Assembly (NCBI GenBank): GCA_045863855.1
Contig: BTVV01000022.1
Span: 1-64,000 of the forward strand
Origin: Planctomycetota bacterium
GTDB lineage: Bacteria > Planctomycetota > SZUA-567 > H5-PLA8
DNA length: 64,000 nucleotides
Reading direction: 5' to 3'
The notes beneath the pieces were generated by a model, which was given only the letters and a program-made list of their open reading frames with translations, did not search any database and was not told the origin of the DNA. The position numbers and the translations under genes were made by a program. Shown here piece by piece: positions 36,383-51,859 of the stretch. Each line of letters opens with the position of its first letter. Within the stretch, counting starts at the first letter, position 1.

Positions 36383-36415
36383 AAAAAGCAAAACCGCCCC
36401 ACGAAGGAGGCGGTT
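36383..36415 (-). terminator. Intrinsic terminator, probably the original host tRNA terminator
   Basis: Minus strand AACCGCCTCC-TTCG-TGGGGCGGTT then TTGCTTTTT, just downstream of the duplicated tRNA 3' end. Confidence 0.65.
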
Positions 36416-36437: not shown

Positions 36438-36487
36438 GTAAATGGTATACCCGGGAGGATTCGAACCTCCGACCTCAACCTCCGCAG
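36438..36487. repeat. att site, left copy: 50-bp direct repeat equal to the 3' half of tRNA-Arg(GCG)
   Basis: gtaaatggtatacccgggaggattcgaacctccgacctcaacctccgcag, identical to 51777-51826. Confidence 0.95.
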
Positions 36488-36755
36488 ACAAGGCCAAGCA
36501 TCTAACCCCAATCACTCCCTTCACGCATATCCTTACCTCGAAAGGCTTTTGCATAGAATCAAAAACCCGTGGCCGTCATCAGAACAACCCCTAATTAACC
36601 TCAAAAGTGGGACCGTATTTGGCCACTTTCCCGATTTGGCCGAGCTGGCCGAGTTGTGGCCGAGCCTCACGCGCGCCGATCGCGCCGAGATCCTGCGCCG
36701 CGCACACGACCTTGCGGGAGAGAAGAGAGAAGCTCCCCCTCCCCCCTTAAATTGA
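36488..36755 (+). other. Detached 3' end of the integrase gene (in frame with int after circularisation)
   Basis: The att repeat reads VNGIPGRIRTSDLNLRR in both places; this frame stays open for 88 more codons. Confidence 0.7.
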
Positions 36756-36796
36756 TAGATACCAACCCCTTGCGCGCTTTTCGGCCTGCTTTTCCT

Positions 36797-36959
36797 GCAC
36801 ACGAAACACACGAACACCCCCTCCACTAACTATACCTATAATTCATGCTCCTACCCTCACTTACACGATTTCACCTGGATGTTTGGGAGCCTAAGGAAGG
36901 GAATAAATTTGGGTATAGTAAGTGAGGGGGGTATTCGTGTGTTTCGTGTGTTCGTGTGC
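36797..36959. repeat. Imperfect inverted repeat with CACACGAA iterons (candidate replication origin)
   Basis: CACACGAA at 36798 and 36807; TTCGTGTG at 36934, 36943 and 36951; arms also share CCCCC..CACT.ACTATACC; AT-rich. Confidence 0.6.
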
Positions 36960-37098
36960 TGAACTGGAGCCTCACCGAAGGGGAACGGGCCTACGGGGTG
37001 AAGGTGAAGCGCGGCCGGATCCTTGCGTTTCAAGCCAGGGGCCGGATTAGCTAGAATCGTTAGCTGGAACTTTCGGGGAGGGCACAATTTCGCAGACC

Positions 37099-37141
37099 GA
37101 AGCGCGCTCACTTCCATCGGTTTTTTGGCCAGGAAGGACCC
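37099..37141 (-). repeat. 43-bp direct repeat copy 1 (begins GGGTCCTTCC on minus strand; cos-like)
   Basis: 39/43 identical to 37366-37408. Confidence 0.7.
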
Positions 37142-37365
37142 ACGGCGCCGGCCTGGACGGCGGGGGGGCCTGGCGGCGCCCCACGTTCCGAACCGCGTTC
37201 CGTTCAGCCGCGGAACCGCGCGCGCGGGCTTCGATCCGCAAACCCGTCCGCGATCGCCCTTTGTCTGTTAGCTATGAAACGCCGAGCGCCTTCAATGCCA
37301 AGCAGGGGGCGCGTTCCGGAACCAGGAGAACTTTTGAGGGCCTGGGGTCTGGGATGCGAGAAGCT

Positions 37366-37408
37366 GAAGCTCGCTCCCTTCCATCGGTCTTTCGGCCAGG
37401 AAGGACCC
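37366..37408 (-). repeat. 43-bp direct repeat copy 2
   Basis: 39/43 identical to 37099-37141. Confidence 0.7.
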
Positions 37409-37518
37409 GCGCTCATTCCGTCGCACAACGGGACACATCTCGGCGGTCCGTTCGGCAACTCGCATAGAGGGGCGCGGGGCACAGCGCGAGCGCAGACGAC
37501 TGCGCGGGCAAGACGCGC

Positions 37519-38040
37519 TTACTCACCCGCTTCGCCTTCGTTCAACATCCCATGCGGAACGTACGGAACCGACAGCGCGCGCACCAGATCCCAAAGCACC
37601 CCCACCGCGCCATGCAGCGCCAGGACGGACACCAAGCACAGCGCCAGGCCCAACGACGCCCCGGCCTTCGCCAAGACGCACGCCGTTGCGCTCCAGGCCT
37701 CGGGGAGCCACGGCGCCGACCAGACGCACCAGCCCAGCCACAGGACCGCGTACAGCGCCGCGGAATTAAGCAGCCACGACGCGCACCAGAGCCACGCCAG
37801 AGCCCAGCGGCCGGCGATCCGGCGCACACGAATATCGAGCGGCTGCATGGCCACGGCCTCCACCTTGGCCATCGATTGCGCCGCCAGGATCGCCTCTTCG
37901 TTCAGGCGGTCGCGTTCGGCTCGATACGCCTTTTCCTGCAGCGCGCGCAACGCATCGCGCTTGGCCTGCTTCGCCTGGCGCACCGGATCGAGCGGCGCCG
38001 CCTTTTCGTCCAGCTCACCTGCCGCCGTCGCTTCGTTCAT
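37519..38040 (-). CDS. Hypothetical membrane protein (element)
   Basis: Charged helical N-terminus plus hydrophobic C-terminal segments; ATG overlaps the upstream stop. Confidence 0.55.
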   Translation of the reverse strand: MNEATAAGELDEKAAPLDPVRQAKQAKRDALRALQEKAYRAERDRLNEEAILAAQSMAKVEAVAMQPLDIRVRRIAGRWALAWLWCASWLLNSAALYAVLWLGWCVWSAPWLPEAWSATACVLAKAGASLGLALCLVSVLALHGAVGVLWDLVRALSVPYVPHGMLNEGEAGE

Positions 38041-38432
38041 GGCCTTGTGCCTCCATCGAAACGGCCCGCGCGATCGTGCAGCCCCAGCCACGCCCGCGCA
38101 CGCTCGGCCGCCGCGGCGAACCAAGCGCGCCGTATGACCAGCACGCCCCGCGCATCGACGCCGGCCGCCTCGTCCTGAAAGCGCCAGCCCGCGAGCGCGC
38201 CGTACAGGCACACCAGCCACACCGCCGGCGAGAGCGCCACCCATACCAGCCAGGCCGCCAGAGCCGCCGGAACGCGCCACAGACGCCGCCAAGGGGGAAA
38301 GGCGAACCAGGCCCAGCCCGCGACGGCCGCCGAACCTAGGAACAGCACCGCCCCGTACAGGCACAGCACCAACACCAGATAGACGGCCGCCACGAAGGGA
38401 GCCGCCAGCGCGCAAAGCGCCCACGTCTTCAA
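38037..38432 (-). CDS. Hypothetical membrane protein (element)
   Basis: About three hydrophobic segments; TTG start overlaps the upstream stop. Confidence 0.55.
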   Translation of the reverse strand: MKTWALCALAAPFVAAVYLVLVLCLYGAVLFLGSAAVAGWAWFAFPPWRRLWRVPAALAAWLVWVALSPAVWLVCLYGALAGWRFQDEAAGVDARGVLVIRRAWFAAAAERARAWLGLHDRAGRFDGGTRP

Positions 38433-39688
38433 TGGTTAGCCCAAGCCTGCCGGCGCGAGCGGTAGCCCGTCCACGCCGCCGCACTCTGAGCCTGCAGCAC
38501 GTCATGCTTCAATTGCTCCGCCTCCGAACGCGCCGCACGCATATCCGCGGCAGCCTTCTTTCGAACTTCATCGCGCTTTTCAGCCGTGGCCACCTTCTTC
38601 TCAACGGCTTGCTCGGCGTACCCGCGCCGGCGCTGCTGTTCGGCCGCTTCGCCGCCCCACCAATCCGTCATTTTTTCGAACGGATTTCGAAGCGCCATTT
38701 TCGTATTCACATAGTCGCTGTTCATCTGCCGTTCGGGATCGATCGCCTTACTCAGCTCATCATCCAATAGCTGATTGCCTGTCTTCTGGTCGAGCTGCGA
38801 AGTCCACATGCCGCGGCGCTGCCGCTCTTGCTGCAACAACGCTCCCGGGTCCCGGCCAGTCAACGCCTTGAAGTGCTCGCGAGACCGCGAACGCAGCTCG
38901 CCGCGCTTCTTCACTCGATCCGCTACATCTTCGTCCGTACCCGAAATATCCACGTCCATGTATTTCTTCAGCGCGAAGCTGACCGACCCGCGCGCCTCAT
39001 CGGCCGTCGCCTGCATCCGGAGCGCTTCCTTCGTCACCAGGTCCTGGCGTATCCCGTGCTTGCGCGCGGTATCGAAGCGGACGGATTCATTCTGCGCGCG
39101 CTTGACGCCGGCGTCGTGAATCGCAAGCCCGATCTCGCCGCCCGCCATGGCGGCCTCTAGGTAAATCGATCCCATTCGAAGCGCGCCGCGAGTTTTTTGC
39201 AGCGCACGCGCCCCCATGCCGGCATCCAGACCCAGCCGCTGGCCCAGCACCGAACGCGACAACGAGGCCGCAGCCTTATCGGCAAAGTTTTTCAGCACCT
39301 TCGACTGCAACGCCCGCGCCGCTTCGTCCACCACGCTCTTGACGACCCCCAACGATGCCGCGCTCACCGTCCCGCCGCGCGCGGCGGTGTTGGCCATCAT
39401 TTCGATGCCCATGCCGATATTCTGGATCGGATCGATGGAGCTCCTAAATTGCCGCCGCGCGTTGCGCGCCTCCCCGGCGCCAGTCCGCGAGATCCCTAAG
39501 AAGCCGCGCAACGCCTCTGCGTCGCCAGATCGCGCGCCGCCTTGAATCGCGCGCCGCGCCGCGGCGCGAACGTGCGAAGGCACCGAGCCCCCGCCTTTCT
39601 GCATCCGCAGAATCCGCGTACCCAGCCCGCGAAGGATGCCTTCTTCCCGACTGCCCTTGGCCACGTTGCACCGATCCTTTCGAAGCAT
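38429..39688 (-). CDS. Hypothetical helical protein (tape-measure/ejection-protein-like composition)
   Basis: 419-aa Ala/Gly/Arg-rich helical ORF in the leftward operon; function inferred only. Confidence 0.55.
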   Translation of the reverse strand: MLRKDRCNVAKGSREEGILRGLGTRILRMQKGGGSVPSHVRAAARRAIQGGARSGDAEALRGFLGISRTGAGEARNARRQFRSSIDPIQNIGMGIEMMANTAARGGTVSAASLGVVKSVVDEAARALQSKVLKNFADKAAASLSRSVLGQRLGLDAGMGARALQKTRGALRMGSIYLEAAMAGGEIGLAIHDAGVKRAQNESVRFDTARKHGIRQDLVTKEALRMQATADEARGSVSFALKKYMDVDISGTDEDVADRVKKRGELRSRSREHFKALTGRDPGALLQQERQRRGMWTSQLDQKTGNQLLDDELSKAIDPERQMNSDYVNTKMALRNPFEKMTDWWGGEAAEQQRRRGYAEQAVEKKVATAEKRDEVRKKAAADMRAARSEAEQLKHDVLQAQSAAAWTGYRSRRQAWANH

Positions 39689-39736
39689 GCGCCCTTCGAA
39701 GCACGGCGCGTTTTACCCATGCGGGAACCGGCCCGA

Positions 39737-39919
39737 CTACGCGCCCGCGCGCCGCAGGCCTTTGAGGCTCTTGAGCGCCTTCGGTTTCTTGAGCGGCTTC
39801 GGGCGGGCCAGCCCCGCCACCTTGGACCGGAACAAGGCCGCCTGCCCCAGCGGCGACGGCGCGCGCGAACGCGCGCGAACTTCCGCAAATATCCGGGCGC
39901 CACTCAACAGCTTGCGCAT
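39737..39919 (-). CDS. Small basic hypothetical protein
   Basis: 60-aa Lys/Arg-rich ORF co-oriented with the operon. Confidence 0.3.
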   Translation of the reverse strand: MRKLLSGARIFAEVRARSRAPSPLGQAALFRSKVAGLARPKPLKKPKALKSLKGLRRAGA

Positions 39920-40028
39920 CGCCAGGCCCTTTCATTTCAAAGCGGCGGGGCGCGCCGTACGCGGACCCACCCACGCCGCCGCCGGCACACGCCGGCTTAC
40001 TCTTCGCCGCGCACCCTTTCAGACCGGC

Positions 40029-40066
40029 CGGCGGCCCTGCCGGCCTTTTAACCGGCAGGGCCGCCG
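40029..40066. terminator. Strong hairpin (15-bp perfect stem) within the leftward operon
   Basis: cggcggccctgccgg-ccttttaa-ccggcagggccgccg; no clear U-tract. Confidence 0.45.
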
Positions 40067-40238
40067 CAACTTGCCGCTTCTCCCAGCGGTCGGGGCTCAC
40101 GCCTACGCCATCGAAAACGCATCGTGAGCGGCGCGTGTTTTGGGCTAGGAGCTGACGGCCCACAGGGCACGCCAGGGGGGACGCCTCGGGCCGCCACTAC
40201 GCGCTAGGCGGAGCCTCATATCCCCTCGACTAAAATTG

Positions 40239-40967
40239 CTACTTCCGATCGCGCTCCCAATCCCGGTGAACCTGGCGAAGGGCTTCCGTGAGTTTCATGC
40301 CCGTACGACGGGCGCGAGCGCGAGCGAGGGCGAGCAGATCCGCTTGCCGCGCGTGCTTGGCTTCGTGGCGCTTCTGGAGTTCCGACTTCACGCCAGGTCG
40401 CACCTTGGGCCGCGAGGCGCGCAAGAACGAGGCATGCAGCTCGGGCTTTTCGCGCGATAGGTACGACATCGCGGCCGCCAACGTGCACCCGCGCTTTTCC
40501 GCACGCTCCCGCGCCTCCGTCATAAACGGATGCGCGCTAAGCAACCGAAGAGGCGCCATTTGAATGCGCGGGCCAGACGCCAGGGCTTTCGGATCTTCGT
40601 CTTCGTCGTCTTCGTTGTCGTCGTCGTCTTCTTCGTCGTCGTCGTCTTCGTCGTCTTCGTCGTCTTCTTCGTCGTCGTCGTCTTCGTCGTCGTCGTCTTC
40701 GTCGTCGTCTTCGTCGTCTTCGTCGTCCTCGTCGTCTTCGTCTTCGTCGGCTTCGTCATCTTCGTCGGCTTCGTCGTCGCTGATCGGCAGGGGCGGGCGC
40801 CCCACGCTCTTCAGGTACGCCTCGTGCAGCGCCGGCTTCTCACGCGCCAACGCGCGGATCGCTTGCGCGAGCGAGCATTTCTTTCGTTCGGCGAGGGCTT
40901 CCGCCTGGCGCATGAATTCATGCTTGGTGCCCAGCAGGCCCTGGGGCGTGCGGCTTGTTCTTGGCAT
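40239..40967 (-). CDS. Protein with repeated ~40-aa helical modules separated by a poly-Asp/Glu tract
   Basis: HEFMRQAEAL..KCSLAQAIRALAREKPALHEAYL and HPFMTEARER..GCTLAAAMSYLSREKPELHASFL; RBS AGGAG. Confidence 0.75.
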   Translation of the reverse strand: MPRTSRTPQGLLGTKHEFMRQAEALAERKKCSLAQAIRALAREKPALHEAYLKSVGRPPLPISDDEADEDDEADEDEDDEDDEDDEDDDEDDDDEDDDDEEDDEDDEDDDDEEDDDDNEDDEDEDPKALASGPRIQMAPLRLLSAHPFMTEARERAEKRGCTLAAAMSYLSREKPELHASFLRASRPKVRPGVKSELQKRHEAKHARQADLLALARARARRTGMKLTEALRQVHRDWERDRK

Positions 40968-40997
40968 GGCTGGCTCCTAAAAATGTTCGCGGACTGT

Positions 40998-41192
40998 TCA
41001 GCTTCCGCGCGTACGCCGATGCAACGGGATGGACGTCACAAACGCCTGATGCAGATCCGGCCTGGCACGTGCCAATTCACGAATGGCCTGCGCGAGCGAG
41101 CACCGCTTCCGCTCCGCTTGCGCGCGGGCCTCGAGCATGAACGCATGCGTTCCGCCCGTGGGGTCTTGGGGCTCGGTGCTGACGCGTGGCAT
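40998..41192 (-). CDS. Single-module paralogue of the 40239-40967 protein
   Basis: HAFMLEARAQAERKRCSLAQAIRELARARPDLHQAFV; same ATTTTTAGGAG leader and MPR start. Confidence 0.75.
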   Translation of the reverse strand: MPRVSTEPQDPTGGTHAFMLEARAQAERKRCSLAQAIRELARARPDLHQAFVTSIPLHRRTRGS

Positions 41193-41233
41193 GAGTCACT
41201 CCTAAAAATCGGGAACCGCGTACGCGCCGACGG

Positions 41234-41947
41234 CTACTCAGCCGCCGGCGCTACGGCTTCGACTTCAGCTTCGGGTTGCGGTTCGGTCTGGACTTCCGGC
41301 GCCGGGTTCAGCGCGGCTCGCGCGGCGCCCAGGGCCTCGGCGATTAAGTCCCTTTTGCGAAGCGCCGACCGTTCCGGGTTGCGCGCGCGCGTACGCTCGA
41401 GGAAATCGACTTGCACCGGTAGCGGTTCGCTGCCCAACGCCGCCGCAAGCGCCGGATGCGCCACCAGGTCTTGGGCGAGCCGCGGAAGCCCCATAGCAGG
41501 GCCGCACAACCGTTGAATCACATCATGCGGCGAGTGACCTTCGCGCGGATCCAACATGCCGCCGCGCAGCGCCGCAAAAGCCCGGATCGCGCCGGCCACG
41601 TGCGCGGCCAACTCGCCAAGCAAGGCTTGCCGTTCTGCTTCGTCGGCCTGGTCTGCCGCGTCCAGCGGCGCGGACAGCGCCGCACGCGCGATCTTTTCGG
41701 CATCGCGCATCTGCTCATCGATTTCGAGCAGCACAAGACGAAGCGCCTCCGCATCGCGCCGGGCCTCGAAACATTCTTTTTCCGCCGCGGCCTCTTCCTT
41801 CGGCGCGCCCTTGCCGGTCCGTACGCGCTGCTTGCGCAGATCCTCCGCTTTCGCATCCGACGCGGCCGCGGCCTCTTCGTACTCGGCGAGCTGCGCTTCC
41901 AGCTTCACGCGCTCGAAGGCCAGCTCTTGCAGTCGTTCGGCACTCAT
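41234..41947 (-). CDS. Coiled-coil hypothetical protein (element)
   Basis: E/A/R-rich heptad-like N-terminal half; AGGAG RBS. Confidence 0.65.
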   Translation of the reverse strand: MSAERLQELAFERVKLEAQLAEYEEAAAASDAKAEDLRKQRVRTGKGAPKEEAAAEKECFEARRDAEALRLVLLEIDEQMRDAEKIARAALSAPLDAADQADEAERQALLGELAAHVAGAIRAFAALRGGMLDPREGHSPHDVIQRLCGPAMGLPRLAQDLVAHPALAAALGSEPLPVQVDFLERTRARNPERSALRKRDLIAEALGAARAALNPAPEVQTEPQPEAEVEAVAPAAE

Positions 41948-41974
41948 GGTTCTAGCTCCTATCGTTCGGGTTCA

Positions 41975-42451
41975 TTAAACGGCACGCGCGAGCGGAGCGC
42001 ATCGGTGCGCTTGGTCCGTTTTGCGCGCGTTCTGTTCCACGGGGAAGACTTCGAACTGGTCCAGCGAGATCACAACGACGGCCCGCGCGTCGGCCGGCAG
42101 CTCGCCATCCGGCGCCGGCAGATCCCAGCCACGCGCCGAGAACAGCACCGCGAAACACCGGGAGCCCAAGGCCGCGCTGCACCCACGGTAGAAGGTGCTC
42201 TTAGCTACCGGCAACCCCAACTTACGCAAAGCAGCGAGCGCTTCGGATGCGTTCAGCACCGGAGCCGCGCCCGCGGCTTCGGTCGCGGCTTCGCGCGCTA
42301 CTTCCGGCCCCAGCATCGGAGCGAGCACGCGCACCAGCGCACACGCAAGGCGTCGCCGGCCACGATCGCGCAGACGACTGCGCACCGGCGCAAGCGCCGC
42401 GGTCAGTTCGGCGAGACCCGGCTTTAGAACTTCAGTCCGCAATCGAAGCAT
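41975..42451 (-). CDS. Hypothetical protein with possible HTH
   Basis: VLNASEALAALRKLGLPVAKSTFYR resembles an AlpA/MerR-like HTH. Confidence 0.45.
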   Translation of the reverse strand: MLRLRTEVLKPGLAELTAALAPVRSRLRDRGRRRLACALVRVLAPMLGPEVAREAATEAAGAAPVLNASEALAALRKLGLPVAKSTFYRGCSAALGSRCFAVLFSARGWDLPAPDGELPADARAVVVISLDQFEVFPVEQNARKTDQAHRCAPLARAV

Positions 42452-42747
42452 TGATGCTTCGGCATCCGGCGGCCGATGACCTGGGGGTAAGACGCGGTCT
42501 GCAGCGGGTGGCTGGGCTGCGCGCACTTCGGACACGGCGGGCCGCTCGGCGCCGCCTGCGCCGCGACGGGCACGACCGGCGCCGGCTGCACCAGCGCCGC
42601 GGCCGGGACACCAATGCGTCGCTTCGCCTTGCGCTGCGCTTCGATGGACGGATGCAGGGGCGGAACCGCCAGCGAGGGGGGCCGGCTGCCGGCGTACGTG
42701 CGTCGAATCGGGCCGACTGGTTCGGCGCCGTGTGCGGTGTAGCTCAT
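42424..42747 (-). CDS. Zinc-ribbon protein (Ogr/Delta-like)
   Basis: C-terminal CPKC...HQCFDCGLKF; AGGAG RBS; first gene of the leftward operon. Confidence 0.55.
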   Translation of the reverse strand: MSYTAHGAEPVGPIRRTYAGSRPPSLAVPPLHPSIEAQRKAKRRIGVPAAALVQPAPVVPVAAQAAPSGPPCPKCAQPSHPLQTASYPQVIGRRMPKHQCFDCGLKF

Positions 42748-42839
42748 GACTTTTCTCCTGGGGGCAACCTCTTTCCGTGCCGCGGGACTGCGCAGACGTC
42801 TGCGCCAGATTCGATCGAGCACGGGCGAGGTTCATGCGC

Positions 42840-42897
42840 GCATAGGACCACAGGCGGCGGCTGAAATCGACGCGGCCAAACCGCAGTCATTCCGCAA
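42840..42897 (-). promoter_or_regulatory. Duplicated promoter/operator, leftward copy
   Basis: 33/34 identity to 46134-46167 in inverted orientation, plus an equally spaced GTGGTyyyATGC box. Confidence 0.7.
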
Positions 42898-43125
42898 CCC
42901 GTCTAACCCAAGCCAGAAAAATGACTTACGTGATCATGAAACAAAGCCGGAAGCAGGCTCTATTTTTCTGCGGGCGGTTGCGGTATAAGGCGCGGTTGCG
43001 CTGGACACCTGAAGCCACGCGCGGAACGCACGCGACAATCGAAGATCGCCCCACGGGGAGGCCGTAAGCGCAAGCTCGGCACCGACGCCGCCCGGCGAAG
43101 GTTCAGGCTCCCCAGGGGCGGCCCT

Positions 43126-43701
43126 ATGCCGAGATGCTGCATGTTCTTCGCACCCGAACTCTCTCCCAGGGAACGGAGCGTTCTCCGCTTCGGGTCACTC
43201 GCGCTCCCGACGCATAACGGTCTTCGGTACTTCCCAGTATCCTTGGTTGGGCACAAGCGATTCGAGCACCTATTTTCTCAAACCTGGAAACGGATTAATC
43301 AGCCTGACCGCTCCGTGATATTGCGCCACTGGAAGACGCAGCCCGGAACACCCAAGGATCCGTACGCGCCTGAAATCATTTACAGCTCTACTGGGTGGCG
43401 CAATAGGCCAATGGCGGGGTCCTGCTCCAGCAACGGCAATGAATTACAATTTAATGCGACCCTTATCCAGCGGATTCCCAATGAAGCGGCCAGGGCCTTG
43501 GTTGCCCACGAACTTGCCCACGCCTTTTTAGAGGGCATGCGCCACCAAAAAAACTTTGTTCTCGCTAAGCACGAAGAAGAAGAATTCGTTGTTGATCAAG
43601 TCATGAAAGCTCGGTGGGGTTTCGACGATACGCTGATCACCCAATGGGTGGAGACACATCCCGAGATTCACGACCTGCTGCATGAAGCGAACAGCGCATA
43701 A
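43126..43701 (+). CDS. HEXXH zinc metallopeptidase-like protein
   Basis: LVAHELAHAF plus downstream EEEE; visibly lower GC than its flanks. Confidence 0.65.
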   Translation: MPRCCMFFAPELSPRERSVLRFGSLALPTHNGLRYFPVSLVGHKRFEHLFSQTWKRINQPDRSVILRHWKTQPGTPKDPYAPEIIYSSTGWRNRPMAGSCSSNGNELQFNATLIQRIPNEAARALVAHELAHAFLEGMRHQKNFVLAKHEEEEFVVDQVMKARWGFDDTLITQWVETHPEIHDLLHEANSA

Positions 43702-43891
43702 GCGAAAGGAGGCCGCCTATCGACTGAACCGCCCTACGCGCGTTAGAGCGCGCGGGAGTAAAGAAGCGGGGCCGACCAGCGATGACACGCCGGCCGACCC
43801 CTAAGCAAGCCACCAGTCAGAGCCTGGCAGCTTACCTAGCCGTGAGTATCGGCCAAGGTGCTGCCCTTTCATCAGAGGAAAGGGGCACACG

Positions 43892-44917
43892 ATGCACCGC
43901 CCAAACCAAGCACCGCAGGACCCCCCCGACGATTCCGAAGATACGCAAAGCATAGAAGTGCTTTTGAACCATCCCGAACATCCCGACCGGACCACGCCCG
44001 GCTGGCGCAACCTGCTGCGCGCACCGAACGGGCACCTGCTGACCCGCGCGGACCTGAAGAAAGAAAAGCGGAACCTTGCGCAGGCGCTGTTGGGCTTCAA
44101 GGCCTTCCCGGATCTAAAGGACGACCTTCACCCCGGATTCCAGCGCGCCATGGAGCCGCGTATCTGGATCCTGTCGCTCCTGCTGCGCGGTCGACGGCCC
44201 GTTCCGGCGGCTTGGTACGACGGCTATGTAGAGCACGTTCACCACGTCTGCAAGCGTCAGGAGGAGCCCGAACCACCCGACCGGTTGAAAGCCGACCGGA
44301 AGGAGCTGGCCTTCGCGCTGCACTACGCCGAACAGCACCCCGAGGCCGACGGGTGCGACCGCTGGACGCGGCTGAACCTGGAAGCGCGCATCCGGATGAT
44401 CCGGCACTTCCTGCGGCGCGGCGTGACGCGCCTGGCGTACACCCGGATCGCAAACCGGATCATCCGGCACACCGCGAAGCGGGGCCGCCACGGCCTTCCG
44501 GCGAGCAAGCCCGCACACACGCCGGACGGAGCGCCGCGCGACTGGAAGGAGGCGCACCGCGAAGTGCTCCGCTGGGAGCACCTGTTTCGCGAAGTCCCGC
44601 ACCTGGCCGAAGAGCATCCGGCCTTTCTGGACAGGCTGAAGCGCAACAACGCGCCGCCGGCCGAACCCGAGCGCACGCCGGCGAAGCCGCCGCTGCCCCC
44701 GGACGCCAAGCCGGGAGGCATTCAAGGCCCCGAATGCTACGAGCTGGACCCGCGGCACGATCCGCTGGTCTGCAAAGCCACGGGCGACGAACACGAATGG
44801 GTGCCGCACGCCGAGCGCGGGCACGCCTGCTGCTTGTGCGGGGTTCATTACAAGCCCCTAGATGGCGGGCCGGCGACGCCCGAGGACCTCTTCGACCTGG
44901 AAGGGGGTGCCGTTTGA
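43892..44917 (+). CDS. Hypothetical protein with Cys/His-rich C-terminus
   Basis: 341-aa ORF with element-like codon usage; C..C...HEW...CCLCG. Confidence 0.6.
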   Translation: MHRPNQAPQDPPDDSEDTQSIEVLLNHPEHPDRTTPGWRNLLRAPNGHLLTRADLKKEKRNLAQALLGFKAFPDLKDDLHPGFQRAMEPRIWILSLLLRGRRPVPAAWYDGYVEHVHHVCKRQEEPEPPDRLKADRKELAFALHYAEQHPEADGCDRWTRLNLEARIRMIRHFLRRGVTRLAYTRIANRIIRHTAKRGRHGLPASKPAHTPDGAPRDWKEAHREVLRWEHLFREVPHLAEEHPAFLDRLKRNNAPPAEPERTPAKPPLPPDAKPGGIQGPECYELDPRHDPLVCKATGDEHEWVPHAERGHACCLCGVHYKPLDGGPATPEDLFDLEGGAV

Positions 44918-45183
44918 GCCCTTCCCTGGATTTGTTGGAGCGGTACGACGTGGCGCGGCGGAAGTATCCGGGCTGGGCGTTTCTCATGCAGGACGATCGC
45001 GACCCCGCGCGGGGCTGGCTGATTCGTGAAGTGGGGCGCGTGGGCTTTGTGCATCTTCCGTTCCCGTGGTCGGACCACGAGCGCCACCTTGCGCGGCTGC
45101 TTTGGCAAGGCGTCAGCGTAGCGGTTACGACGCCGCTGGCGGATGAATTGCCGGCGCCCGCGCGGCTGGCGCTGGAAGGGTAG
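44914..45183 (+). CDS. Small MutS domain-I-like protein
   Basis: TTG overlapping the upstream TGA; LERYDVARRKYP...PFPWSDHERHLARLLWQGVSVAV. Confidence 0.5.
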   Translation: MSPSLDLLERYDVARRKYPGWAFLMQDDRDPARGWLIREVGRVGFVHLPFPWSDHERHLARLLWQGVSVAVTTPLADELPAPARLALEG

Positions 45184-45195
45184 CGCGTTAAAGTC

Positions 45196-46125
45196 GTGCC
45201 GTCGCCGGATAGCCCGGCCAGGCGAAGAGGGCCACTCCAAGCCCCTGCCGGCGACGGTCTTTTCTTGGAGCGCGCAAGGAGGCGCGAACGTATGAACGAC
45301 GATGAACTTCGGAAGGTGTTCCTCCCCCTGGTCCACCGAGCACGGCAAGCCGATCGCCACTTTGACGTGCTATTCCTTTGGATCAAGCGCCTCGATACAA
45401 CATGGCTGGCGATACGCTTTGCAGAACTGTCCGCAGAGGCGCAAGGCGCGCTGGTGGAAGGCGCGCGCTACGGGCTCCTTGACTTGCTTATTTCGTTCGA
45501 TCTCACCGAAAAGGGGCTTTCACGGGCGGGACTGGCCCAGGTCCGCGGGGATGTATTTTCGCCGCCCGGAGGCCTGCCTCAACTGCTGGCCAGCCACCTT
45601 GCTTCAAGCGGTCTGGTACCAGAGGGCTCCACCCTACACAGCGCCCTTCCGATCAGAGTCAGGCTTTCGAGTAGAGGCCGCGACGCCGAGCAGACTTGCC
45701 CCGACGTGGTTTCCATGCGCACGGACTACTGCGCGGAACCCGAACGCGCACGGATTGCCGTTGTGGAGCTGAACAAATCGGCACCCGAACCAGCCCTGCA
45801 CGCGCAGACCGTCAACATTCAACACGTGGGGCAGGTCCGCGCCGAGACGGTGAATCTCCCGGCACCGCCCGCCCAAGCGCAGACGTCTGCGGAGCCGCTT
45901 GCGGACCTTGAAGCGTGGATTTTCGATCAACTGAAAGGCGCCTATCGAACGGCAAAAGAACTTTATGGGGCCGCCAAGGGTGATGCAGGGCTGATTAAAA
46001 AATCAGTAGGGAGAGAAAAACGAACCATCGAAGGGGCTTTATCTAACCTCAAGAAATCAAAGCGGATAGCTCTTAAAAGAGGCTCAGGCTACTACCGCCC
46101 CGACGCACCGCCCAACGCCCGCTAA
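45196..46125 (+). CDS. Hypothetical protein with C-terminal winged HTH (candidate element regulator)
   Basis: IFDQLKG.YRTAKEL...TIEGALSNLKKSKRIALKRGSGYYR; start may be ATG 45292. Confidence 0.6.
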   Translation: MPSPDSPARRRGPLQAPAGDGLFLERARRRERMNDDELRKVFLPLVHRARQADRHFDVLFLWIKRLDTTWLAIRFAELSAEAQGALVEGARYGLLDLLISFDLTEKGLSRAGLAQVRGDVFSPPGGLPQLLASHLASSGLVPEGSTLHSALPIRVRLSSRGRDAEQTCPDVVSMRTDYCAEPERARIAVVELNKSAPEPALHAQTVNIQHVGQVRAETVNLPAPPAQAQTSAEPLADLEAWIFDQLKGAYRTAKELYGAAKGDAGLIKKSVGREKRTIEGALSNLKKSKRIALKRGSGYYRPDAPPNAR

Positions 46126-46133
46126 ACACGCTA

Positions 46134-46191
46134 TTGCGGAATGGCTGCGGTTTGGCCGCGTCGATTTTTAGCGCGCCCCGTGGTTCCATGC
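46134..46191 (+). promoter_or_regulatory. Duplicated promoter/operator, rightward copy
   Basis: ttgcggaatggctgcggtttggccgcgtcgattt..gtggttccatgc just before the replication operon. Confidence 0.7.
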
Positions 46192-46214
46192 CCTCAGTTC
46201 ACGAGGGCATACCG

Positions 46215-46442
46215 ATGACTTCGCTTCAAGTAGCGCAACGCGTCACGACTCGCGAAGCGGCAGACCTCTTCAAGTGCGAACAGGCCCAAGCGCTGGTCCT
46301 GCTCAAGGCTGCACACATTCCGCACGACCGCGTAGGGCACGGCCAATACCTCTGGCACGCCGAAGCCGTGCTCCGCTTCGCCGAAACGCTCGCCGCGTCC
46401 GAACGCGCCGCGGCGCCGGCCGCCGTCCAGGCCCAAGGATAA
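46215..46442 (+). CDS. Small AlpA/Xis-like DNA-binding protein
   Basis: VTTREAADLF...RVGHGQYLW..EAV. Confidence 0.55.
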   Translation: MTSLQVAQRVTTREAADLFKCEQAQALVLLKAAHIPHDRVGHGQYLWHAEAVLRFAETLAASERAAAPAAVQAQG

Positions 46443-46500
46443 GGGAAAAAAGAAACGCGCGGTCGCCGCCAAGCAGACCCGCGCGCTTCGAAGAACGAAC

Positions 46501-47001
46501 ATGGGAACTATACTCCGCTACCCGTTCCGCCCGCAAGAGGGCAGCCCCGCCGAATCCGAGCGGAAGCTGGCCGAACTCCAAGCCCGCGGCTGGAAGCTGA
46601 CCCGCATGGGCTTCCAGCTCCCCGAACGCGACCAGGCCCGCGGCCTCGAACCCGAGCCCGACGCCGAAGAAGTTCGCCTCTGCACGCTCTTCCTGTACGT
46701 CCACGCGCTGCCGCGCGAATCCTTCAACGAACGCGCAGACAGCTACCGGTTGAAGCATGACGTGGAGCGCTGGCTCGAGGCCGCCGGCTGCAAGCGCCAC
46801 ATTTCCAACGGCGCCTTGATCGTCGCCGCCGTCCGCATGGGCTTCCCGTTCCGCCTCTTCGACCCGCCGCACCAGAAGGACGCCTTCTTCCGCATGGGCC
46901 TGTTCTGGCGCTGGAACGGTTCAAGCGAAGTGCCGCTCCCCGTAGACCTCTGGCCGGCGCATATCCGCAACGGCCGCACCGCTCAAAGGGCGCGCCGATG
47001 A
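46501..47001 (+). CDS. Mobile-element hypothetical protein
   Basis: SYRLKHDVE...ISNGALIVAA motif, which I recall from phage/satellite replication regions. Confidence 0.6.
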   Translation: MGTILRYPFRPQEGSPAESERKLAELQARGWKLTRMGFQLPERDQARGLEPEPDAEEVRLCTLFLYVHALPRESFNERADSYRLKHDVERWLEAAGCKRHISNGALIVAAVRMGFPFRLFDPPHQKDAFFRMGLFWRWNGSSEVPLPVDLWPAHIRNGRTAQRARR

Positions 47002-47225
47002 AGCCCTCCCTCCCAAAAGATATGCCGGTGCTGTACTGGCGCTTTCCCAACGGCAAGGTCCTGCCGTTCTTCTCGCCCTTCGCCAGCTACGCCGAGAACC
47101 GCCGCTTGCGCGCCGGCCTGCGGCTGCACCGCGAAGCCTGGGGCTTCAAAAAGGGCGAGGGCGAGATCGTCTCGCACCTGCACGGCCAGTTCGTTCCGTG
47201 GCCGCCGAAGGACGGGCAGCCATGA
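46998..47225 (+). CDS. Small hypothetical protein
   Basis: ATGA-coupled to neighbours on both sides. Confidence 0.5.
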   Translation: MKPSLPKDMPVLYWRFPNGKVLPFFSPFASYAENRRLRAGLRLHREAWGFKKGEGEIVSHLHGQFVPWPPKDGQP

Positions 47226-47785
47226 GCGCGCGCGTCACCTTCGAAGAGGCCGTCGCCAAGCTCTGCGCGCATCCCAAGTGGAGCTGGTCGGCGCGCTGGT
47301 GGCGCTTGGGCGAATTGATCGTGGCCACGCGGGACAAGGCCTGGTCGGTCAAGGATCCCGCGAAGCTGGTGCCCGTCGGCGTGACGGCGCTGGGCTGCAC
47401 CGGCATCGACCAGGCCGGGCGCTTGGCCTGGATTTTTTGGGATCTCGACGTTTCCCACGGCGCCCCGATCACGCTTTCCGACGGAGAGAAGGTCCAGCCG
47501 TACGCGACGGTAGAGGAAGCGATCGCCGACGCGCGCCGGCTGCGCAAAGCGCTGGACGGTCACGCCGAGATCCGCTTCAGCAAGAGCGGGAACGGCGTGC
47601 ACGTGCGGTACTTCGTGGGCGCCGAGCGCAACCTGCCCGGCCATACCGGCCCCGAGATCGCGAAGACCTTCGCGCGCAAACTGAAACTGAAGGCCGACCG
47701 CTCGCCCTTGGGCCGCCAGGCCGCTTGGCTCTGGGCGCGCACACTCCCGCCGCGGGCCTTCGAATTGATTGAGGACTGCGCATGA
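47222..47785 (+). CDS. AEP-superfamily primase catalytic domain
   Basis: WIFWDLD (DxD) and FSKSGNGVHV (SxxGxH) motifs. Confidence 0.7.
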   Translation: MSARVTFEEAVAKLCAHPKWSWSARWWRLGELIVATRDKAWSVKDPAKLVPVGVTALGCTGIDQAGRLAWIFWDLDVSHGAPITLSDGEKVQPYATVEEAIADARRLRKALDGHAEIRFSKSGNGVHVRYFVGAERNLPGHTGPEIAKTFARKLKLKADRSPLGRQAAWLWARTLPPRAFELIEDCA

Positions 47786-50019
47786 CGCCCGAAGAAATGG
47801 CCAAGCTCCCGCCTGAAGTCATGCGCCTCTTCGAAGACGCTGAACGGGACAACCTAAGCGAGCCCACCCCAGACGCGGGCGCGCGCGAGATAATGCCTGC
47901 CGGCCGCCCCGCCGGCAGCTCGCGCGCGTCCGTCCCGCCTGGCGAGGCCATGCCCGACGCCGAACGCGCCGCGCGCTACGCCGCGAAGGTGAACGGCGCC
48001 GGCGAAGGCGGGCGCAACGACGCGCTGAACGCGCTGGCCTATCGGCTGCTCGAACTTTTCAACCTGACCGAAGAAGAGCACCGCGGGCTATGCCTCGACT
48101 TCGCCGCGCGCTGCGCGCCGCCGATCCCCGAACGCGAAGCGCTGGCCACGACGGGGAGCGCCTGGAAGGGCGCGCACCGCAAAGGGCGCGCCGGCGCGGC
48201 GCGGACCGAACCGAAGCGCAAGCGCTCGAGCGCCACGCCGCCGGCGAAGCGCGCGCGCGGCGTCCCGCAAGGCGAGGCCGCGGCCTTCCTGGACGCGGCG
48301 TTGCAAGAGAAGCTCGAAACCGTGGCGGCCATGAAAGGCACCTCACGCGACAAGGCGGCGCTGGCGCTGCTGGAAGAGATTGCCGCGGCGCTGGCCGGCG
48401 CGCCGGCCGTTACGCAAGAGCGCGTCAAGAAAGAAGCATGCAAAGCGCTGGACCTGAACGCGCGGGCCTTTGATCGCGCGCTGCGCGAAGCGAAGCGCAA
48501 AGACGACGGCGCCGACGACGACGGCGAAGGCGCCGGACGCCCGAACTACCAGGACCTGGCGCGCGAGCTGCTGCGCGCCGAAGGCTACGGCGAACCCGGC
48601 GCGCTCTGCCGCTTGCGTCACCTGAAAGACGATTTCTTCACCTGGCAGGGCACGCACTACCGGCGCGAGACCGATTCGACCTTCAAGGCGCGCGTCTGCC
48701 GTTTCCTGCAAAGTTTCCCCGGCGCTTCGCATCGCGTCTCGCACCAGATGGTTTCCAACGTGGCCTTGAACCTGGTCGGCTTGATCTTCCTGCCCGACGA
48801 AACCGAACCCCCTTGTTACCTGGAGGAAAGCGAGATGCGTTCCAATCCCTACCTGGTCGCCATGCGCAACGGCGTGCTGGACCTTCAGGCCTTAATGGAA
48901 GGGCAACCCGACGTGCTGAAGCCGCACGGCCCGACGTTCTTTAACCTGAACGCGCTGCAATATGACTACAAGCCCGGCGCGACGTGCCCGAAGTTCTTGA
49001 AGTACCTGGAGGAAGTGCAGCCCGACGCGACCGTGCGCGAGCTGCTCCAGGAATGGGCCGGCTACCTGCTGGTGCCGCTGACCAAAATGCACGCCTTCAT
49101 GCTGATCGACGGCGAAGGGAGCAACGGTAAAAGCGTTTACCTGGCGGCGCTGCGCGCGCTGCTGGGCGAGGAAAACTATTCGAGCGTGCCGTTGCAGGCC
49201 TTCGCCGCCGAGCGCCCCTTCGCGCTGGTGGATACGCTGGGCAAGCTGGCCAATTTCGACTACGACGTGACCTTCATTGAAATGCGCGAAGAAGGCCGCT
49301 TGAAGTCCTGGGTGTCCGGCGAACCCGTGTTGGTCGAGCGGAAAGGCCGGGACGCCATGAGCATCCGCCCCACGGCGCGGTTGACCTTCGCCTGTAATGA
49401 CCGCCCGTTTTTCCGCGACAAATCGAAGGGCATCTGGCGGCGCATGCTCTACGTCCGCTTCAATCAGACGATCGGCGAAGAGCAAAAGATCGCGGGCATG
49501 GACGAACCCGGCTGGTGGCTTGAAGCCGGCGAGCTGGAAGGGATGTTTCTTTGGGCCGTGGAAGGCCTGAAGCGCCTGCTGGCGCGCGGGCGCTTCCTTG
49601 AACCCGAGGCCTGCAAAAACGACAAGGCCGAATACAAGGACGACCTGAACCCCGCGGCCACGTTCTTGCGCGAGCACGCCGAAGAGCAGACCGGCGCCGA
49701 GACGGCCACGCGCGAGCTGTACGAAGCCTATGAACTTTGGTTTAGAGAGAACGGGCACCAACCCAAGTACAAACTGACGAAGGCGCATTTCGGGCGCGAA
49801 GTGCGGCGCATCTTCCCCGCCGTCGAGCTGACCAAGCACGCGCGGACCAAGCTGGTCATGGTTCAGCCGTCGCTCTGGGAAGCCGCCAAGGGGGCGCAGC
49901 CGCGGGAAGAGACCGTCCGCGATCGAGTCTGGATCGGCCTGCAATTCCACGCCGAGGGCGTACCTTGCCCGAATGAAGCGCACGCCGAAGCGGAGGGCGC
50001 CGGCCATGCTGCCGATTGA
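47782..50019 (+). CDS. PriCT + D5-type SF3 helicase (P4-family primase C-terminal type)
   Basis: GEGGRNDAL (PriCT), MRNGVLDL, Walker A GEGSNGKS, FACND.P, GIWRR. Confidence 0.9.
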   Translation: MTPEEMAKLPPEVMRLFEDAERDNLSEPTPDAGAREIMPAGRPAGSSRASVPPGEAMPDAERAARYAAKVNGAGEGGRNDALNALAYRLLELFNLTEEEHRGLCLDFAARCAPPIPEREALATTGSAWKGAHRKGRAGAARTEPKRKRSSATPPAKRARGVPQGEAAAFLDAALQEKLETVAAMKGTSRDKAALALLEEIAAALAGAPAVTQERVKKEACKALDLNARAFDRALREAKRKDDGADDDGEGAGRPNYQDLARELLRAEGYGEPGALCRLRHLKDDFFTWQGTHYRRETDSTFKARVCRFLQSFPGASHRVSHQMVSNVALNLVGLIFLPDETEPPCYLEESEMRSNPYLVAMRNGVLDLQALMEGQPDVLKPHGPTFFNLNALQYDYKPGATCPKFLKYLEEVQPDATVRELLQEWAGYLLVPLTKMHAFMLIDGEGSNGKSVYLAALRALLGEENYSSVPLQAFAAERPFALVDTLGKLANFDYDVTFIEMREEGRLKSWVSGEPVLVERKGRDAMSIRPTARLTFACNDRPFFRDKSKGIWRRMLYVRFNQTIGEEQKIAGMDEPGWWLEAGELEGMFLWAVEGLKRLLARGRFLEPEACKNDKAEYKDDLNPAATFLREHAEEQTGAETATRELYEAYELWFRENGHQPKYKLTKAHFGREVRRIFPAVELTKHARTKLVMVQPSLWEAAKGAQPREETVRDRVWIGLQFHAEGVPCPNEAHAEAEGAGHAAD

Positions 50020-50278
50020 ACGGCCGGCGCCGCTTGCGCCGATCGCGCTGCACCCGCCGCACGCCTTGGCCGTTGACATTTACGAGGCCGCGCGCATGTT
50101 GGGCGTCCACGCGAACACGATCCGGCGCGAGATCGACCGCGGGCACCTGCGCGCCGTGAAGATCGGGCGCGTCTGGCGCGTGCGCGTCGCCGAGCTGCAC
50201 AGTTACCTGAAGCGCAACGAGCAGATCCGCGAGCCGGACCCCGAGGCCTTGGACGCCGATGCAGACGACGCGCGTTAA
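50006..50278 (+). CDS. xis: Excisionase-family HTH protein
   Basis: EAARMLGVHANTIRREIDRGHLRAVKIGRVWRV. Confidence 0.85.
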   Translation: MLPIERPAPLAPIALHPPHALAVDIYEAARMLGVHANTIRREIDRGHLRAVKIGRVWRVRVAELHSYLKRNEQIREPDPEALDADADDAR

Positions 50279-51848
50279 AAACCGGAAGACCGGCCAGCGC
50301 GGCTGGCGCTTCCGGTTCATGGATCCGGCGACGGGACAGCGCCGCCGTAAGACGTTCTGGTATGCCGAGCGATCGGACGCCGAGCGCGCCTACGTGAAAT
50401 TCCTGGACAGGCGCCAGGCGATCGCTGACGGCCTGCCCGAAACGCGCGGCTGGCGCACGCCCTATACCGAACTGGTCGCACGCTTCCTGAAGGAAGCGCC
50501 GATCACGACCGAGCGCCGGCGCGCGCACCTGAAGCGGATCCTGGAACGCAACGAGCTGCGCTTGCAGACCGGCGCGGATCTCGCGCACCGCGGGCGCCTG
50601 TCCGCACGCTGCCAGAAGCTGCGCGAAGCGCGCAGCTCGCACTACGTCGTCTTTTCGATTCAAGCGCCGTTGAAGCAGCTCGCGCGCTGGGCCGCGGAAG
50701 TGACGCTCTTCCCGTTCGATCCGCTGGCCGGCTGGAAGCGCCTGCCCTGGGGCGGAACCCAGCGCACGCGGCACGCCTTCACGCCCGAAGAGATCGCCGG
50801 CATCTTGCGCGCGTCCGAAGAGTACGACACGCTGCTCTTGAGGCCGCACCCGTCCACGATCGTTTACCTTACGCTGCTCTTGACCGGCAACCGGCCCAGC
50901 GCGGTACTCGGCGCGACGGTCGGCGACTTCGATGCCGAGCGCGCGCGGCTGCACCTGCCCGCCGGCCAAGGCAACAAGCGCAACGGCGCGGCGCTGCTGC
51001 CGCCCGCCTTCGTGCCGATCCTGCGCGAGTACCTCAAGATTCGCGGGCGCCTGCCGGCCGACGCGCCGCTGCTGGTGAGCCCCGAGGGCGCCGCACCCGA
51101 CCGCCTGAACATCGGCGACGATTTCCGGCGCGCCCTGGTGCTGCATAAGGTCCGCGAGCTATGGCCGGCGGAGCTGGACGCCACGCAAGACGCCGAGCCC
51201 GCGGAAGTGGCGTATCGGATTTACTACAACAAGCCGCGCGGCTTCGACGGCCGCAAGCCCACCGACCCGGCCAAGGTCGCCGCGCGCAAGCGCAAGCTGG
51301 CGGCCGTGGATCTGCTGGCCGAACGGCTGGGCCCGGACGTGAAGCGCTGGCTGATCGGGCGCGACATGTACGCGCTGCGCAAGACGCACATTTCGTGGGC
51401 GCGGCGGCTGGCCAATCCCGACGCCGTGCGCGAGCAAGTCGGGCACGCGCCGCGCGACATTGAAGAGAAGCACTACCTGGACCTGGTGGACCCGCGCGAG
51501 AGCGCCCTTGCGGTCTGGGACGTTTTAACGGGGGCGCGGTCGCTTTACCCGAACCGGGCCGAGAAAACGCGCCAGGCGCCACCGGAAGCGCTGGCGAAGG
51601 CCGCCGGCGCGGAAGGCCAAACGTTTCAGGACGGGGAAGCCATCGGAACGGACGCCGCGGGCGCGCCGCATGACGGTGGCGCCGCCCGTTCGGGTGATAT
51701 TCTGGGATCGGATTTGGCCACATTAAACAAAAACGCCCCTGCGGAAGGGGCGTTTATTGCTGCTAAGTCTTGTGCTGTAAATGGTATACCCGGGAGGATT
51801 CGAACCTCCGACCTCAACCTCCGCAGGGTTGCGCTCTATCCAGGCTGA
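50259..51848 (+). CDS. int: Tyrosine recombinase/integrase (runs through att; ends antisense within the tRNA)
   Basis: Arm-binding-like N-terminus; TGNRP (R), YALRKTH (HxxR variant), VGHA, KHYL (Tyr). Confidence 0.88.
   Translation: MQTTRVKNRKTGQRGWRFRFMDPATGQRRRKTFWYAERSDAERAYVKFLDRRQAIADGLPETRGWRTPYTELVARFLKEAPITTERRRAHLKRILERNELRLQTGADLAHRGRLSARCQKLREARSSHYVVFSIQAPLKQLARWAAEVTLFPFDPLAGWKRLPWGGTQRTRHAFTPEEIAGILRASEEYDTLLLRPHPSTIVYLTLLLTGNRPSAVLGATVGDFDAERARLHLPAGQGNKRNGAALLPPAFVPILREYLKIRGRLPADAPLLVSPEGAAPDRLNIGDDFRRALVLHKVRELWPAELDATQDAEPAEVAYRIYYNKPRGFDGRKPTDPAKVAARKRKLAAVDLLAERLGPDVKRWLIGRDMYALRKTHISWARRLANPDAVREQVGHAPRDIEEKHYLDLVDPRESALAVWDVLTGARSLYPNRAEKTRQAPPEALAKAAGAEGQTFQDGEAIGTDAAGAPHDGGAARSGDILGSDLATLNKNAPAEGAFIAAKSCAVNGIPGRIRTSDLNLRRVALYPG
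51725..51755 (-). terminator. Intrinsic terminator for the tRNA, supplied by the element
   Basis: Minus strand AAACGCCCCT-TCCGC-AGGGGCGTTT then TTGTTT. Confidence 0.7.
51777..51826. repeat. att site, right copy (50 bp)
   Basis: Identical to 36438-36487. Confidence 0.95.
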
Positions 51849-51859
51849 GCTACGGGTAC
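51782..51859 (-). tRNA. tRNA-Arg(GCG)
   Basis: GTACCCGTAGCTCAGCCTGGATAGAGCG-CAACC-CTGCGGA-GGTTG-AGGTCGGAGGTTCGAATCCTCCCGGGTATACCA. Confidence 0.93.

Follow-up and report, generated by a model that had tools for sequence, protein, structure and literature searches.

A planctomycete island integrase gene spans its own attachment site and is predicted to exchange a helical tail on integration

Introduction

In the text available on Islander, Mx8 and SSV are the only integrases named as crossing attP (PMC4383910). For the myxobacterial phage Mx8, the accessible part of a review describes how integration replaces the 3′ end of int and leaves the enzyme active, with altered efficiencies (PMC6070905), and a title cited in PMC11610982 holds that the C-terminal segment of the Mx8 integrase is not needed for excision. 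The portions of the Mx8 reviews at hand do not state a structural role for the tail. In the archaeal suicidal integrases (SSV1, pTN3, pT26-2), att likewise lies in int and the target is a tRNA gene; integration splits the gene, and the halves are described as inactive in the available part of PMC8371274, where gene-splitting recombinases are called exclusively archaeal.

An opposite-convergent integrase/tRNA layout was counted in 438 of 1273 pairs, according to the available text of PMC2951348. This text and those available of PMC12884075, PMC13626063 and PMC5861418 contain nothing on the integrase family described here. Our search found no literature on this planctomycete family; primary Mx8 work lay outside that search, and a printed description is possible. 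The primary studies of Mx8 IntP are reportedly those of Tojo 1996, Magrini 1999, and Tojo and Komano 2003. To our knowledge, bacterial work on integrases that edit their own C-terminus is confined to essentially one phage.

Here we describe an island in a window, by which we mean the whole 64,000-nucleotide stretch of planctomycete DNA that was analysed. The layout with attP inside int is already known from Mx8; here it is common to many unrelated planctomycete elements.

Results

An island bounded by a tRNA-derived repeat

The island is delimited by a 50-bp direct repeat, whose two copies are 100% identical, 15,339 bp apart and not extendable (Table 1). The repeat spans tRNA positions 34–78 and five bases beyond, and ends exactly at the 7-base anticodon loop. 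From the point where identity ends, we place the crossover, as the likely position, within this loop, where anticodon-centred crossovers usually fall; subsites of this kind are described in the available text of PMC4383910. A genome of the same genus (G006) has the same host flanks (left 90–99%, right 92%) around a different, 13,653-bp element. The island boundaries are thus confirmed, because the G006 flanks meet another element at the same repeat.

Table 1. Features of the island and its target, in window coordinates
Feature	Position	Strand	Remarks
Whole island	36488..51826		15,339 bp, at tRNA-Arg(GCG)
Terminator-like hairpin	36392..36415	-	likely the host tRNA's original terminator, displaced with left att
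Left att	36438..36487		displaced 3′ part of tRNA-Arg(GCG); exact limit of the host flank in common with G006
Displaced int 3′ end	36489..36755	+	88 codons and stop, in the int frame across att
Arm-like repeat, tail side	36608..36630	+	120–143 bases past core; likely an integrase arm site
Conserved helical-hairpin module	36627..36722	+	L-x2-L-x3-W-x2-L-x4-R-x2-I-L; predicted homodimer
P4-family primase/helicase	47782..50019	+	TIGR01613 173.8 bits (cut-off 108.7); PHROG 864
Excisionase-like HTH_17 protein	49973..50278	+	PF12728 E 3e-13; TIGR01764
Tyrosine integrase, integrated form	50259..51848	+	529 aa; PHROG 1 E 1.7e-20
Arm-like repeat, int side	51703..51725	+	within coding sequence; matches 36608-36630
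Terminator-like hairpin	51731..51755	-	inside int coding sequence; element-supplied, for the restored tRNA
Right att	51777..51826		50-bp repeat; candidate crossover at anticodon loop 51820-51826
Restored tRNA-Arg(GCG)	51782..51859	-	antisense strand is last codons and stop of integrated integrase

For the terminator-like hairpin beside the left att, the argument is its position and not its count, with 2 found against 1.4 ± 1.3 in shuffles. No sigma-70-type promoter was found near either att. In the likely source run, island depth equals flank depth, and the 50-bp repeat is a separate contig, to which a joint search is blind. No attP or empty-site joint occurs among the joints listed for four runs, searched as contigs that break at the 50-bp repeat. 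Much of the island (window 37518-49612) recurs in an independent run (X3) in diverged form, with many substitutions and indels. Elsewhere in this genome, 26 tRNA genes lie on one strand at G000 C1:23667-28178, and these include a second tRNA-Arg(GCG).

The excisionase-like gene overlaps the start of int by 20 bases. Apart from the genes listed in Table 1, the island open reading frames (ORFs) scanned gave few matches (a SprT-like domain and a low-complexity acidic protein), and none to capsid, terminase or other virion families, to relaxases or to defence genes. The island resembles phage satellites of the PICI or P4-like type in its size of ~15 kb and in having integrase, excisionase and primase/helicase without a virion set of its own; as to genes that hijack a helper phage, such as those for a small terminase, a capsid or size-redirecting proteins, the other ORFs scanned gave no family match. 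One island ORF of 242 aa (window 40239-40967, minus strand) encodes a long Asp/Glu repeat flanked by two similar basic helical segments. Just past the stop of the tail, 46-bp inverted repeats (36798-36843 / 36905-36950, 85% complementary) are followed by 46-bp direct repeats (37099-37144 / 37366-37411); origin or packaging signals are a possible role for these.

The integrase frame continues across both att copies

The window protein is a tyrosine recombinase of the lambda type, by its catalytic motif set and by fold and profile matches. Its best fold match is lambda Int (Foldseek E 6e-5, probability 1.0), and Pfam gave no match. AlphaFold2 folded residues 1 to ~435 confidently, including an N-terminal domain predicted as three strands and a helix, and placed residues 448–529 in a disordered stretch with pLDDT under 50. 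The predicted catalytic set, assigned by motif position and not by residue-wise superposition, is R212, K240, Y371, R374, H396 and Y406, all upstream of att. Across 44 sequences, R212, K240 and Y406 are invariant, R374 and H396 are kept in at least 90%, and Tyr371 is invariant in place of His. The usual tyrosine-recombinase motif is H-x-x-R, here replaced by Y-x-x-R.

The first-pass annotation of this DNA had claimed that int reads through the right att to stop six codons on, antisense in the tRNA, as a 529-residue protein; that the left att is in the same frame and open to 36755; that the joined gene would encode 611 residues; and that the catalytic residues lie upstream, leaving the core in both forms. 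All of this was borne out. Within int, the right repeat begins at residue 507 and is left at residue 523, six codons before the stop. At the left copy the frame stays open as far as 36753-36755, where it stops, whereas the two remaining plus frames close 34 and 4 codons past the repeat. Joining int to the left end in silico, within the analysis script, gave 611 aa, the predicted circle-encoded form. Integration would therefore swap 88 residues for 6, and the core, with R212 to Y406 and the fold up to ~435, is retained in both forms.

The disordered stretch is dual-use DNA, which holds an arm-like repeat, a terminator-like hairpin and the att core within coding sequence. Arm-like repeats were recognised by sequence on both arms in 6 of 7 elements (the window and five of six related ones), the tail-side copy lying at +109 to +144. 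The first helix of the tail (window 36636-36662) comes from a tandem repeat of 9 bases in continuation of the arm-like motif, such that DNA site and helix overlap.

Related integrases commonly read into the tRNA

Our searches found 50 homologues of the window integrase, and gave 90 regions, 83 of them with a core end in view, which reduce to 62 distinct loci. Many homologues stop in antisense tRNA-like sequence, and several long ones run on from half of a tRNA through a linker into a helical end that resembles the window tail. Where full tRNAs lie just downstream of related cores, all are antisense, 113–240 bases past the core. Among the 41 loci with both a full tRNA and the stop in view, int reads into the tRNA in 34, against a shuffle expectation of 5.5; of the two other plus frames, one is open at 14 of these loci and the other at 5. 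The remaining 7 of 41, one of them in the window's own genome, stop ahead of the tRNA, which indicates that the family can do without read-through and counts against the explanation that we favour below. The far ends of these early-stopping integrases were not found. The early-stopping paralogue in this genome (G000 C100:22081-23397, minus strand) is 51% identical and 438 aa long and ends 145 bases before a tRNA-Gly(GCC), a tRNA that is the site of 4 of the 7 early-stopping members.

Searches detected the integrase family in 12 of 16 further genomes from the family to which the window belongs, and in none of the 45 other genomes of the class that were searched. Among close relatives of int, 22 of 23 named loci are titled Planctomycetota, and GenBank phages gave no match to the window integrase. 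An unsplit gene was present in a viral record (G072; 42,034 bp), which has direct terminal repeats, a terminase, a portal and a head protein and lacks a tRNA gene. Its 590-aa integrase contains a 53-bp, 90.6% match to the window tRNA and continues into a helical, Trp-less tail. Judged from its sequence, this complete circular phage carries the unsplit form of the integrase gene.

The tail is kept in frame at the far end of related elements

Both att copies were found for nine related elements, seven among the 62 loci and two after extension of eight regions (in one of these two, the int-side copy does not lie in a full tRNA); 53 of the 62 loci gave no att partner, mostly since the DNA ended. 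A tail of 77–100 codons continues in the int frame in 9 of 9 elements, and other frames reach at most 37 codons. In shuffles, the chance of 70 open codons was 0.012–0.115 per element (seven tested). The related genomes are not independent, and these frame counts are not formal tests. Six of the nine tails have the Trp motif, two have a Trp-less helical variant that was not scored by the profile, and one, that of G006, has nothing to which the profile gives a score. This last element, of the same genus and at the same tRNA, has an in-frame 77-codon tail without a motif match and counts against our preferred explanation, as do the Trp-less tails of two further elements and of G072.

A tail profile built without the window gave the window tail 41.6 bits in frame and less than 0 in the other five frames, its rows having been gathered with profiles that did contain the window. 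Across 14 tail motifs, identity by codon position was 0.46/0.58/0.31, and 587 of 822 pairs of identical residues used different codons; these patterns point to selection at the protein level, with a signal inflated by the choice of 8 of the 14 motifs by protein motif. The linker between att and the hairpin varies from 35 to 70 codons and shows no sequence conservation; DNA sites lie within it. The supposition that the tail is conserved in frame beside the att sites of related integrases was thus upheld, in 9 of 9 elements, with unsplit forms present both in databases and in circular phage G072.

The tail was modelled as a two-helix hairpin, with pLDDT of 95–97 over the helices. Folding two copies of the hairpin gave a score of 0.46, against 0.02 for the best of three controls; the homodimer runs agreed in 100% of contacts at pLDDT of at least 80, and the predicted interface is formed by the conserved Leu, Trp and Ile positions. 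Of 30 solved pairs, 20 reach the mark for a homodimer, as does 1 of 23 single chains; these figures are only rough where an own alignment is used, and resemblance to helical dimers of known structure may account for a pass. The modelling supports, but does not show, self-pairing of the hairpin. Searches of Pfam, PHROG and the PDB by sequence and by fold yielded no assignment of the tail and no sequence match of weight. The two-helix hairpins of phage and XRE repressor dimerisation domains resemble it (TP901-1 CI, 6fxa, Z 3.7; CapH, 7t5w, Z 3.1; 3ivp, Z 4.0), a likeness and not a family assignment, as no row reached Z 5, the tool's mark for a common arrangement. A match to the PvuII N-terminus was set aside, since it arises from a tandem construct.

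The tail module leads back to other integrases

A 32-position tail profile gave 64 matches in 38 of 301 genomes of the phylum, the window's included. Of 29 non-self tail loci retrieved, 20 have an antisense tRNA T-arm pattern 85–234 bases upstream (two with weak tRNA evidence), and the frame is open through the pattern in 20 of 20; four of the others follow a sense tRNA or tmRNA, and five have no tRNA nearby. When 30 tail regions were traced, the partner att was reached in eight, the other 22 giving no complete element. At the partner att the tail frame was the longest in 8 of 8, at 427–524 codons in seven and 195 in one, with other frames at most 68, and in 8 of 8 its score exceeded the cut-off of Pfam Phage_integrase. 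Among the other traced regions, G090 has a repeat of 72 bp but no open frame upstream of it, which counts against the explanation we favour; the rest were incomplete or unclear. Seven of the integrases reached in this way are 25–38% identical to one another where aligned and barely align with the window integrase. The module occurs at many tRNAs and at tmRNA, in both polarities, on islands and on a tailed phage.

A search of 1.84 billion representatives with the tail gave 63 matches, mostly small unnamed ORFs, with one fragment that fuses an integrase end to the tail; long multi-repeat matches in the same search were treated as chance. Atlas tail matches score at most 0.88 and are leads only. 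This genome holds a second split integrase, of opposite polarity, in which a full tRNA-Gln(TTG) is followed by a sense, in-frame tail (G000 C59:26025-26395; 21.9 bits); its partner lies on another contig (G000 C12:10548-11740), where a 27-bp 3′ fragment is reached by a 396-codon integrase frame, which is the tail's frame. At G105:C5 (L135-L136), tandem islands occupy a tRNA-Leu gene, and the inner att junction joins one integrase to its neighbour's left end. Such a tandem arrangement is a way to make hybrid integrase ends.

Discussion

Presence or loss of the tail is likely the signal by which the enzyme distinguishes a free element from one in the chromosome. The reading we prefer, and hold to be somewhat probable, is that the hairpin on the circle-encoded 611-aa enzyme favours integration, and that its loss biases the resident 529-aa enzyme towards excision with the excisionase. 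A recombination-driven switch of integrase activity, stability or directionality, as proposed in the first-pass annotation, would be the putative function of the swap. The free circle would encode a 611-aa integrase ending in a hairpin predicted to homodimerise, and the integrated copy a 529-aa integrase with the same core and no hairpin. By analogy with Mx8, the tethered dimer may help Int protomers to assemble the attP × attB synapse, in which attB lacks arm sites; on the same analogy, the hairpin could be dispensable for attL × attR, leaving the short form and the excisionase to excise. We infer a role in direction because the Mx8 integrase stays active after its swap, with changed efficiencies. 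Neither the core nor the tail of the window integrase is significantly similar to Mx8 IntP (BLASTP E 2.3 at best; 0.5 bits with the tail profile), and since its tail lacks sequence similarity, the behaviour of Mx8 need not carry over.

The swap might instead set the amount or the overall activity of the integrase and not its direction, with a dimer tail that boosts the enzyme after entry and a tRNA-antisense end that leaves it weak or short-lived and the element quiet. We consider this rather unlikely. In its favour, the long disordered stretch of integrated forms closes with a short end that is tRNA-derived and in many cases hydrophobic, a separate excisionase gene could set direction alone, and the available part of the Mx8 review describes changed efficiencies and not an on/off switch (PMC6070905). 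However, the integrated ends vary with the tRNA and the frame, and no common degradation signal is evident among them. An action of the tail mainly in trans, in which a small left-end protein pairs with the tail of the full-length integrase and damps re-integration or superinfection, seems improbable to us. The hairpin module is predicted to self-pair, gene callers record the tail as stand-alone ORFs of 42–176 aa, and there is a TTG in frame at 36414, beyond the end of a host gene that points the same way; but called ORFs are no evidence of expression, the TTG start and the purine run upstream of it sit within the terminator hairpin of the host tRNA, and continuity of the frame through a variable linker of 35–70 codons is what fusion predicts and independent expression does not.

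It is quite improbable that integration is suicidal, as in SSV1, with a dead truncated enzyme and an element locked in until a full-length gene arrives. The position of att within int is that of the suicidal integrases, as far as the available text of PMC8371274 describes them, and excision of the element is not seen in the contig data, which cannot span the 50-bp repeat. Against this, att comes only after the entire folded core and all the catalytic residues predicted, the excisionase gene overlaps the start of int, and there are family members that naturally end 10–37 residues past the core. The non-conserved linker, which carries DNA sites, and the one tail without the motif (that of G006) would fit an open frame that is chance, or a by-product of DNA sites in GC-rich DNA, and a tail without a role as protein. 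Agreement of frame in 9/9, 20/20 and 8/8 cases and the codon-level signs of protein selection refute this as far as sequence can, and we regard it as very improbable indeed.

Beyond the direction-setting role that we prefer, we tentatively propose, with doubts that outweigh our confidence, that planctomycete elements share a portable directionality switch. One dimerisation hairpin behind attP would be kept on, or moved between, integrases 25–38% identical, at many tRNAs and tmRNA and in both polarities. Integration would strip it from the enzyme and leave it at the opposite end of the element, possibly to be expressed as a free decoy, and orphan ORFs near tRNA fragments would be cut-off integrase ends.

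The family offers a conserved module of 30 residues, a predicted interface whose residues can be named, and natural variants by the dozen, tail-less ones included, and thereby makes the question of how the swap sets direction directly testable. Mining integrated genomes of this phylum will yield integrases in their truncated form; unless read from attP, these may perform poorly as tools for integration. The tail profile also marks the ends of islands and explains a set of orphan ORFs.

Among known systems, the lambda-type heterobivalent integrases at tRNA genes share with the window integrase the lambda Int fold, the N-terminal domain, arm-like repeats on both sides and an excisionase. Unlike them, the window int crosses the whole of attP, has Y-x-x-R and carries a tethered C-terminal hairpin at least 120 residues past the core. 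Of the two comparisons in the first-pass annotation, that with SSV1 holds only for the position of att within int: in SSV1-type integrases the catalytic domain is in the cut-off part, whereas the window integrase keeps its core whole. The comparison with Mx8 stands. Mx8 IntP is likewise a tyrosine integrase with attP in its own gene and an excisionase gene overlapping its start; it has 533 aa in all, with a tRNA-antisense segment followed by ~110 residues. As read from sequence, the layout matches that of Mx8, with attP in int 3′ of the catalytic domain and at the 3′ part of a tRNA, a match that does not show Mx8 lineage. Compared with Mx8, the window tail closes with a single conserved module of small size, which also occurs on integrases that are only 25–38% identical.
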